From the NCBI RefSeq assembly GCF_024298765.1, contig NZ_CP101218.1: a DNA stretch of 2,543 bases. One strand, 5' to 3'. The notes beneath the pieces were generated by a model. The model was not told where the DNA came from, did no database searches, and saw only the letters and a program-made list of their open reading frames with translations. The stretch is from Escherichia coli. Lineage in GTDB: Bacteria; Pseudomonadota; Gammaproteobacteria; Enterobacterales; Enterobacteriaceae. Both the position numbers and the translations under genes were made by a program. Shown here piece by piece: positions 134-1,595 of the stretch; within the stretch, counting starts at the first letter, position 1, and every line of letters starts with the position of its first letter.

Positions 134-559
134 ATGACTAAAAATAAACGTAGTGGTTCAGAAGTACGGCAGAGAACTAAGGTTATCACCCTTAGAGTAA
201 ATAACAGAGTCGCAAGCGAAATCAGACGGCGAGCGAAGAACGAAGGACTGACAATTTCAGAATATATCAGGACGGCAAGTTTAAATAATGAAATAAAACA
301 GCGCGTACCTTCCAGGTATTTAGATGAATTAATCCGACTTGGTCGGATGCAGAAGAAATTATTTGATAAGGGAAAGCGGCCGAAGGATAAGGAGTACCTC
401 GAGGTGATGCATAAAATAATTTTACTTTGCGATGAAATGAAAATAGTAACGAAGCGAATTTCTGATGTATATAATGAAATGGATTTAATAAAGGATGAAA
501 TAAAAATAATAAAAAGGATACATAAAGATAAATATCCAGGTTCGGATTTATTCAAATAA
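134..559 (+). CDS. mobC: Ribbon-helix-helix DNA-binding protein, MobC/MbeC-like plasmid mobilization accessory protein (141 aa). The frame is open to the window start, so alternative starts at ATG 23, TTG 11 or off-window cannot be excluded.
   Basis: ORF track frame 11..559. ATG at 134 is preceded by GGAGAG with a 9-nt spacer. The N-terminal basic tail followed by RTKVITLRVNNRVASEIRRRAKNEGLTISEYIRTASLN fits the RHH beta-strand/helix/helix pattern (R-x-I-x-L-R-V ... G-L-T-I-S-E-Y-I-R) typical of MobC-type relaxosome accessory proteins; the C-terminal half is charged and helical. TAA stop at 557-559. Confidence 0.6.
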   Translation: MTKNKRSGSEVRQRTKVITLRVNNRVASEIRRRAKNEGLTISEYIRTASLNNEIKQRVPSRYLDELIRLGRMQKKLFDKGKRPKDKEYLEVMHKIILLCDEMKIVTKRISDVYNEMDLIKDEIKIIKRIHKDKYPGSDLFK

Positions 560-755: not shown

Positions 756-1307
756 TTAACTAGATTTATCCTCTTGTTTTTCAATTGTATTTTTTCTCTC
801 AATCACAGTTGTAAACGCGATTCTGTCACCATTAAAAACAAAGTTAGGGTTAATGAAATACCTTCCTTGTCGCATTGTTTTTGCAATTATTTTCGCTTTT
901 TCCAATTCATTAAGACCTCGCTTAAAGGTTGCAAGACTTAGTCGTAATGGTTGTTTACTCGCAGAAACTTGGCACTGAAGAAACGCTTCTAAAACTAAGG
1001 TATCCAAATCAACTTCGTCTTTTGAGAGTGCAGAGTTCTGAACGGACCAAACTAAAACACCGAAGGCTTTAATTCCCGCAGAAGATAGCTCAAAAGTTAA
1101 GCCAATATTTGCTGTAAAAAGTTTTACAAACTGTTCGCTATCAACACGTTTATATGTTGTTACGTGAGTACCTTGAACCTCACCTGTGTTCTGATTGACC
1201 AGGATGTTATCATCACGACCTAGACGCGAAAGCCTAACTTGCTTCCCCTTGACAGGTACAACCATTCCTTCTAAAAATGGGTTTTCTTTATAGCGACCGA
1301 AGCTCAT
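756..1307 (-). CDS. repL: Plasmid replication initiator, RepL family (winged-helix DNA-binding), 183 aa
   Basis: ORF track 756..1307 (-). ATG at 1305-1307 on the minus strand is preceded by AGGGGTG (SD-like) with about a 5-nt spacer. The protein carries motifs I recognise from RepL of staphylococcal pSN2-type plasmids and phage P1 RepL: NTGEV near the N-terminus, a central FVKLF...GL segment, and a C-terminal LNELEKAKIIAK...YFINPNFVFNGDRI (compare LKILEEGNIIKRK...LMLNPELLMRGDD). Family assignment is from memory, not a search. Confidence 0.8.
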   Translation of the reverse strand: MSFGRYKENPFLEGMVVPVKGKQVRLSRLGRDDNILVNQNTGEVQGTHVTTYKRVDSEQFVKLFTANIGLTFELSSAGIKAFGVLVWSVQNSALSKDEVDLDTLVLEAFLQCQVSASKQPLRLSLATFKRGLNELEKAKIIAKTMRQGRYFINPNFVFNGDRIAFTTVIERKNTIEKQEDKSS

Positions 1308-1338
1308 TTTTCACCCCTAAAATGATACGCAGAAGCTA

Positions 1339-1367
1339 ATCATAGATGCGGGGTAGCTCAAAAACAA
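1339..1367 (-). promoter_or_regulatory. Candidate sigma70 promoter for repL (-35 TTGTTT, 17-bp spacer, -10 TATGAT), overlapped by an inverted half-iteron
   Basis: On the minus strand: TTGTTT (plus coordinates 1362-1367), 17 nt, TATGAT (plus 1339-1344). Predicted start near 1332 gives a leader of about 25 nt containing the SD. The inverted half-iteron GTAGCTCAA (1353-1361) sits in the spacer. Confidence 0.3.
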
Positions 1368-1412
1368 GCATAATTTTGAGCTACGGTAGCAACAGGATTG
1401 AGCTACCGTAGT
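1353..1412. repeat. Iteron-like repeats upstream of repL: two 15-bp direct repeats 22 bp apart plus an inverted half-copy
   Basis: TTGAGCTACGGTAGC (1376-1390) and TTGAGCTACCGTAGT (1398-1412) match at 13 of 15 positions with a 22-bp period. Each has internal dyad symmetry (GCTAC-N-GTAGC). GTAGCTCAA (1353-1361) is the reverse complement of the first 9 nt. Confidence 0.55.
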
Positions 1413-1476
1413 ACAGATCCTGAAAACACGATCCCCATTTCATGCGGGTTGCGAGAGATTCCCTTCTTAGTTCTTA

Positions 1477-1510: not shown

Positions 1511-1515
1511 TTCTT

Positions 1516-1573
1516 TTCCGCTTCCTCGTCGATTCGCTCACTACGTTCGGTCACCGACTTGCGGCGAGCGGTA
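1516..1573. other. Primosome-assembly-site-like segment (ssi/pas) resembling the region just downstream of the pMB1/ColE1 origin
   Basis: Window sequence TTCCGCTTCCTCG...CGCTCACT...GTTCGG...TGCGGCGAGCGGTA shares, in the same order and orientation, an 11-13-mer, an 8-mer and a 14-mer with the pBR322/pUC backbone (CTTCCGCTTCCTCGCTCACTGACTCGCTGCGCTCGGTCGTTCGGCTGCGGCGAGCGGTATCAG) as I recall it. Not verified by a search. Confidence 0.4.
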
Positions 1574-1595
1574 ACAACACTCGCGCATTGCCGTC

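Follow-up and report, generated by a model that had tools for sequence, protein, structure and literature searches.

Direct repeats upstream of repL in a small cryptic plasmid of Escherichia coli: probable RepL binding sites and a predicted autorepression operator

Upstream of repL, a 2,543-bp stretch of Escherichia coli DNA, analysed here as a whole and called the window, carries two direct repeats and a shorter inverted copy of them, which raises the question of what these sites do. A sequence-only reading had seen in them Rep binding sites at a replication origin, combined with autorepression of the rep promoter. The DNA of the window is that of a small cryptic plasmid of enterobacteria with genes for MobA and RepL: mobA (134-559, plus strand) encodes a NikA-like MobA, and repL (756..1307, minus strand) a protein of 183 residues that belongs to the Pfam family RepL (PF05732). 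The two ends of the window lie side by side in L002, a plasmid of 2.3 kb, which makes it probable that the window is a complete circle of 2,543 bp.

Two 15-bp direct repeats at a 22-bp period are indeed present, on the minus strand at 1398..1412 (DR1) and 1376..1390 (DR2). In the sense of repL they read ACTACGGTAGCTCAA and GCTACCGTAGCTCAA (plus-strand letters TTGAGCTACCGTAGT and TTGAGCTACGGTAGC), they agree at 13 of 15 positions, and their cores begin at −100 (DR1, core GGTAGCTCAA) and −78 (DR2) from the ATG. The array thus comprises two repeats 22 bp apart, start to start, in helical phase beside repL, which is the minimum for an array. The inverted half-copy was also correctly placed inside the −35/−10 spacer and proves to be a perfect copy of the 10-bp core: at 1352..1361 (minus strand; start at −54) the sense strand reads TTGAGCTACC and the plus strand GGTAGCTCAA, and the segment is 100% complementary to 1398-1407. 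With at most one mismatch, the core TTGAGCTACC occurs five times in the window against 0.10 expected, a number reached in none of 200 shuffles.

The predicted repL promoter, read from the sequence, occupies 1339..1367 on the minus strand and consists of a −35 hexamer TTGTTT (1367..1362), a 17-nt spacer (TTGAGCTACCCCGCATC), which holds the inverted copy, and a −10 hexamer TATGAT (1344..1339); on the same strand, the Shine-Dalgarno sequence AGGGGTGA follows at 1318..1311 and the ATG at 1307. A generic promoter scan of the window did not call this promoter, because its −35 hexamer agrees with only three of the six consensus positions. Among the relatives, TTGATT-17-TAAAAT, -TAAGAT or -TAGAAT is conserved in register at the identical position. 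The 3′ part of DR2 doubles as the distal arm of a perfect 11-bp palindrome (1353..1384, no strand assigned; arms 1353-1363 and 1374-1384), whose 10-nt loop holds the −35 hexamer; the generic promoter/terminator scan found no terminator there. The palindrome is a probable dimer-binding operator, and the inverted copy at 1352..1361 is the predicted operator for RepL autorepression.

To place these sites in context, we compared the upstream regions of 23 plasmid loci with RepL homologues (20-91% protein identity) and of 8 further loci from IMG/VR contigs. Set side by side, the regions align almost gap-free and share one order of elements: a segment containing GAGGAAGCGGAA, the near-invariant TAAGAACTAAGAAGGGA, AACCCGCATGAAATGGGGATCG and TTTTCAG, two direct repeats, a TTG-containing −35 with the inverted repeat copy, the −10, the Shine-Dalgarno sequence and the ATG. 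The relatives have two or three repeats per plasmid, and for 14 of 18 a spacing of 22 bp fits their direct repeats best. Irrespective of sequence, the sites of the core family begin at −100, −78 and, inverted, −54 relative to the ATG, and identical distances from the start codon are found in about 24 related RepL plasmids. What changes is the sequence of the repeats, whose cores are specific to lineages (GGTAGCTCAA, GGTCTATCA, which is the L001-type iteron, GTAAGCTCA, AAACGACA, AACGTATCA, GTTATCA and AATCAAA), and in each plasmid an inverted copy of its own core stands at the same place. DR1 and DR2 of one plasmid agree at 9.4 of 12 positions, whereas a given site agrees at 4.55 of 12 between plasmids; the corresponding values for DR2 and the inverted copy are 6.9 and 4.4. 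Neither within-plasmid value was reached in any of 20,000 permutations. Fixed positions combined with concerted sequence evolution within each replicon are as expected of the binding sites of a replicon-specific protein.

Six of the IMG/VR loci (L027-L032), on contigs of 18-85 kb that are classed as viral, encode RepL homologues and show the same layout of conserved region and repeats; L032 has three 22-bp repeats. Two of the six come from one IMG genome and match Arsenophonus plasmids, and the RepL sequence of L027 is that of L010. These contigs could be phage-plasmids or misclassified plasmids.

The protein in question might be other than RepL. MobA is encoded about 800 bp away, and ribbon-helix-helix proteins of relaxosomes bind short repeats, so that the repeats could be sites for the NikA-like MobA as an oriT accessory protein; they could also bind a host factor, or be a product of chance or a by-product of recombination. 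We regard this group of explanations as scarcely credible. Variation in the repeats goes with RepL, and their position is unchanged where mob is absent or different (L003, L006, L010, L014, L016, L018), whereas L002, with a near-identical mobA and a RepL of only 20% identity, has different, unrelated 22-bp repeats (TGTAACGTGTA...). Chance is excluded by the excess of core copies over shuffled sequences and by the permutation tests.

RepL of the window matches PF05732 over residues 35-180 with 30.4 bits (cut-off 20.3; E = 3.4e-7). An AlphaFold model built from an alignment of 22 sequences is moderately confident (mean pLDDT 64, and 67-89 in core residues 57-152), and its topology appears to be that of a winged helix. 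A Foldseek search of the model against the PDB gave no significant match, the top hits all being winged-helix domains, and a sequence search of the PDB gave only marginal winged-helix matches (TubR, LrpA; E > 0.1), so that support for the fold class is weak. According to the model, the third helix (residues 125-137, LATFKRGLNELEK) is likely to be the recognition helix. An HUH motif is absent from RepL, there were no matches to Pfam Rep_1, Rep_2 or Rep_trans, and no tyrosine occurs in the invariant or nearly invariant columns of the 22 homologues.

Two positions in the putative recognition helix vary together with the repeats. K129 and N133 are paired with (A/G)GCTCA in 10 of 10 plasmids, and A or W at 129 together with A or K at 133 with CTATCA in 6 of 6; further combinations are M/R with GTTATCA, Q/S with AACGACA and T/K with AATCAAA. 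This covariation follows the clades, so that the cases are not phylogenetically independent, yet the direction in which it points is clear.

A literature search found no functional study of the RepL clade to which the window belongs. Its RepL does, however, find the Rep of a Col(IMGS31), pIGMS31-like plasmid in tblastn (E = 5e-17, about 33% identity, full-length alignment), and thereby the pHW126-like family, with pHW126 of Rahnella and pIGRK and pIGMS31 of Klebsiella, which has been dissected experimentally (PMC6854812; 10.1101/2022.12.05.519187; PMC2831885). The REP module of these plasmids consists of an ssi-like palindrome, a conserved region (CR) of roughly 20 bp, four iteron-like repeats, IR/DR sequences at the promoter, and rep; their Rep is without HUH and Rep_trans motifs and is distant kin of the RepL of pSN2 (PMC6854812; 10.1101/2022.12.05.519187; PMC2831885). 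The four iterons are of 20 bp with 2-bp spacers, which amounts to a 22-bp period, and in pIGRK and pIGMS31 the minimal origin is CR plus iterons (PMC6854812; 10.1101/2022.12.05.519187). In these two plasmids the iterons exert incompatibility and are needed in cis together with CR (PMC6854812), and Rep binds both iterons and IR/DR operators in EMSA; repression by Rep of its own promoter has been found in pIGRK, pIGMS31 and pHW126 (PMC6854812; 10.1101/2022.12.05.519187).

The window has the same order of elements and, as far as the model goes, the same kind of initiator, a small winged-helix Rep without HUH motifs. Next to the repeats, on the minus strand, lies a CR (1420..1476) that is nearly invariant across the relatives and comprises the boxes TAAGAACTAAGAAGGGA (1476..1460) and AACCCGCATGAAATGGGGATCG (1450..1429) and the heptamer TTTTCAG (1426..1420). 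A CR box of the form (C/T)AACCCGCAT(G/A)AA is common to the window and the pHW126-like plasmids; the window's CTCGCAACCCGCATGAA and its counterpart there, CTCGTAACCCGCATAAA, agree at 17 of 21 positions, as do CTCTCGCAACCCGCATGAAAT in the window and GTCTCGTAACCCGCATAAACA in the pHW126-like plasmid L022. Because the CR box is recognisably the same and the Rep proteins are detectably homologous, the module of the window is, on these sequence comparisons, homologous to the characterised pHW126-like kind and not just similar to it in layout.

The window's RepL clade is a sister of the pHW126-like group and not closely nested in it, and the modules differ in several ways. Where pHW126-like modules have four iterons, the window has two, with the same 22-bp period and at the same position. 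Their IR/DR operator shares sequence with the iterons and has a counterpart in the window at the sequence level only; here the operator is an exact inverted iteron core in the −35/−10 spacer, palindromic with the proximal iteron. The window further has the extra CR box TAAGAACTAAGAAGGGA and a higher GC content, and its RepL scores above the Pfam RepL threshold, whereas the pIGMS31-like Rep scores below it.

Conserved positions, concerted evolution, covariation with the helix and homology to the pHW126-like module all support the proposal, made from the letters alone, of RepL binding sites with an autorepression operator, and we consider it likely that the repeats are RepL binding sites that serve both the origin and autoregulation. 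RepL binding, the requirement in cis for replication, autorepression and the mode of replication are properties that we infer for the window. The layout of repeats, CR and operator is already known from related small plasmids studied in the laboratory, among which the window is ordinary. The sequence-only reading had also held that upstream iterons would be notable, on the grounds that the origin of RepL-family plasmids lies inside the gene. This expectation has to be given up: the closest relatives that have been characterised carry their origin upstream of rep, with iterons at a 22-bp period, so that upstream repeats are what one should expect and no exception.

An origin inside the gene is instead a property of phage P1 RepL, to which the window's RepL has no detectable homology. 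P1 RepL has 281 residues, and oriL lies within its gene (NC_005856 annotation). Its likeness to the window's protein is confined to the gene name and a generic helix-turn-helix: P1 RepL has no PF05732 match, hhalign gave a probability of 9% against the family profile, and tblastn gave no match. On these results we reject homology with P1 RepL, which corrects a false lead that came from the shared name.

Classical iteron plasmids of the theta type (pSC101, R6K, F, P1 oriR, RK2) offer another comparison. In these, in-phase direct repeats beside rep bind a winged-helix initiator, and autorepression relies on dimers bound to inverted partial copies within the rep promoter; in P1 the iterons of oriR/incC overlap PrepA (NC_005856 annotation). 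Their initiators are, however, of the Rep_3/RepE type without detectable homology to the window's RepL, and the window differs from them in having only two repeats, next to which stand CR and an ssi-like segment instead of DnaA boxes and an AT-rich element. We found no match to the DnaA box within 1300-1600 and no overall enrichment (12 compared with 7.6 expected), and there is no AT-rich unwinding element near the repeats, around which the GC content is 42-50%. Because neither a DnaA box nor an AT-rich element is near, this is not a classical theta-iteron origin, and the model of such origins does not transfer directly to the window.

The lack of a DNA unwinding element or DnaA box flanking the repeats would also suit another explanation, that all copies (DR1, DR2, the inverted copy and a further one at the start codon) are operators that autoregulate repL, and that the origin consists of CR and/or ssi without a need for the repeats in cis. 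The repeats abut and overlap the promoter, as this explanation would have it, and in EMSA with pIGMS31 the strongest shifts were obtained with IR operator fragments, iteron fragments being bound weakly (10.1101/2022.12.05.519187). Against it stands that the iterons of pIGRK and pIGMS31 were required in cis with CR and exerted incompatibility (PMC6854812). Moreover, some 30 bp separate DR1 from the −35 hexamer downstream of it. Across the family the repeats keep a fixed 22-bp phasing and a constant distance from CR, a regularity that suggests a structural role at CR beyond promoter occlusion. On balance, we judge a purely regulatory function of the repeats to be unlikely.

A third explanation concerns the palindrome, which might form a hairpin or cruciform and present a rolling-circle nick site in its loop, as in a dso of the pT181 or pMV158 type. 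Its stem is perfect and as single-stranded DNA it folds at −9.3 kcal/mol (z = −5.0); furthermore, earlier work has counted RepL and pHW126-like plasmids among the rolling-circle replicons and reported a relaxing activity of Rep (PMC5703833; 10.1101/2022.12.05.519187; PMC2831885). The loop, however, is not conserved among the relatives except for the TTG of the −35 hexamer, whereas CR is nearly invariant; in a dso it is normally the nick site that is conserved best. This contrast between loop and CR makes a nick hairpin unlikely, and two further points weigh against it: the nick of pIGMS31 was mapped just upstream of CR (10.1101/2022.12.05.519187), and RepL has neither an HUH motif nor a tyrosine that is invariant across the 22 homologues. 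We therefore consider a nick site in the loop highly improbable; CR is the candidate site of nicking or opening.

If the repeats are indeed RepL sites for both origin and autoregulation, replication could proceed as follows. The small winged-helix RepL would recognise the roughly 10-bp core GGTAGCTCAA; in occupying DR1 and DR2 beside CR, on the same face of the helix, it would mark and activate the origin. Nicking or opening would take place at or near CR, and the lagging strand would be primed at ssi. RepL, probably as a dimer, would also bind the palindrome formed by DR2 and the inverted copy, cover the −35 hexamer and the spacer, and so repress the repL promoter; the repression may be reinforced by a degenerate copy at the start codon.

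This degenerate copy, a further inverted one (TGAGCTTCGGTCGC, 1293..1306, minus strand), overlaps the repL start codon and matches inverted DR2 at 12 of 14 positions; we assign it with moderate confidence. Five relatives (L028, L029, L006, L008, L013) have copies of their own motifs at the start codon or close to it. Two of these, L008 and L013, have a perfect copy that falls on an in-frame TTG located downstream of the start as annotated, and the annotated repL of these two may start too far upstream and thus be too long.

The remaining copies of the core do not appear to be functional sites. A search for the motif inside repL, which the sequence-only reading had proposed, did yield one copy with a single mismatch (1084-1093), but this is due to conserved F-E-L-S codons, shows no covariation and has no counterpart in the other iteron classes. 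The copy at 1499-1508 was rejected as well: the stretch in which it lies is conserved whatever the iteron class, and the copy is missing in L003 and L004, plasmids of the same class.

The ssi named in the mechanism is a segment at 1513..1585 (minus strand) that resembles a primosome assembly site; in the sense of repL it contains GAGGAAGCGGAA and CCGCTCGCCGC. In PLSDB, 1,298 plasmid records of many replicon types contain similar DNA, among them 1.5-kb pKL1/pKST21-like plasmids, ColE1-type plasmids and large conjugative plasmids; a Rop-encoding ColE1-type plasmid, L026, is 79.7% identical to it. L026 is called ColE1-type because of its annotated rop gene; Rfam found no RNAI in it. At the corresponding place ColE1 and pBR322 have a PriA-type primosome assembly site with a GAAGCGG motif. 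The segment also occupies the position that ssi has in pHW126-like modules. Neither of its strands folds better than shuffled sequences. Based on the similarity to plasmid segments, the site of ColE1/pBR322 and the position in pHW126-like modules, we assign 1513-1585 as a putative ssi. In pHW126-like modules ssi is non-essential and prevents multimers.

At the junction of CR and DR1 there are two GATC (Dam) sites 14 bp apart (1416-1419 and 1430-1433), a pair (GGGGATCG...CAGGATC) that is kept in most enterobacterial relatives. Control of the origin by methylation or SeqA through these sites is possible.

The rest of the plasmid has a different history from its replication module. Parts of the window are common to hundreds of small Escherichia and Klebsiella plasmids, none of which covers at least 80% of it. 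The backbone, which comprises mobA and non-coding parts that are rich in AT or in GC, shares about 96% identity with L002-type plasmids; for the mobA segment in common with L002 the figure is roughly 97%. In contrast, repL and its upstream region are unlike those of L002-type plasmids and closest to L003, whose RepL is 91% identical to that of the window, and to L001, with 78% DNA identity across 765-2022. Directly downstream of the resident repL, at 600-729 on the minus strand, lies a 3′ remnant of about 43 codons (...IIEQRREFEMRIKYSPNGETIITTEEIK) of a second, L002-type repL. Because of this remnant and the near-identity of the backbone, the sequence comparisons indicate that the entire REP module was swapped by recombination; its junctions are near 730-765 and 1620-1700.

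Between mobA and the remnant is an AT-rich hairpin with a 14-bp stem (561-592), after which, on the minus strand, comes a T-run; this terminator-like element may act in both directions. The stretch 1600-2150 is rich in GC (about 58-60%), all of its open reading frames are unsupported, and within it 1696-2022 shares 87.5% identity with L002-type plasmids; possible functions of the stretch are those of an oriT for the NikA-like MobA or of a site for multimer resolution. Scanned against Rfam at a permissive threshold, the window gave no match to an RNA family, and no RNAI or ctRNA-type control element was recognised.

For the window alone, the outcome is an assignment of origin and operator for a common type of cryptic E. 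coli plasmid. Most useful as a by-product is a natural series of initiators matched to their iterons in a fixed geometry, with which one could test how one winged helix changes its DNA specificity and how incompatibility groups come about. To the same protein family belong the pSN2-type resistance plasmids and the very abundant gut plasmid pBI143.

These more distant members, the pSN2-family RepL plasmids of Firmicutes and pBI143 of Bacteroides, share PF05732 with the window (pBI143-like E = 6.3e-8) and likewise have a small initiator (about 18-21 kDa) with a helix-turn-helix; their RepL is about 30% or less identical to that of the window. The pSN2 plasmids have been classed as rolling-circle, with dso and ssoA assigned by similarity (PMC5703833), and the replication mode of pSN2-type plasmids and of pBI143, whether rolling circle, theta or mixed, is still debated (10.1101/2022.12.05.519187). 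In a pBI143-like Bacteroides plasmid (L023, 1105-1545), a box upstream of RepL with TAAGAATAGAAGAAA and TAAGAATAGAAGAAATAG resembles the window's CR box, and several direct and inverted GGAAA/TTTCC motifs follow it upstream of rep. The same origin logic may thus apply to pBI143. Extended to the whole RepL superfamily (the window's clade, pHW126-like plasmids, staphylococcal pSN2 and pBI143), the idea would be that initiation is directed by iterons at a shared CR and carried out by a winged helix without a tyrosine nuclease centre, and is hence not canonical rolling-circle, while incompatibility would be set by one or two residues of the recognition helix (129 and 133 here) that co-evolve with three or four variable bases of the core. 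We put this forward tentatively, as a generalisation that may well fail.

The typing label "Col(MG828)" was considered as a marker of RepL of the window's type and rejected, as 1.5-kb pKL1/pKST21-like plasmids, which have a different Rep, bear it too (PMC8148099), and so does L002, whose RepL, as noted, is far diverged from that of the window. The label may detect the ssi-like module. One plasmid that bears it, the 1,549-bp pKL1/pKST21-like L036, encodes a Rep of 158 residues that is faintly similar to RepL (25% identity over 81 residues, pairwise E = 0.003). The similarity spans the winged helix and the Y-x-(I/L)-(N/D)-P motif that follows it, and this Rep may be a very distant member of the RepL superfamily.
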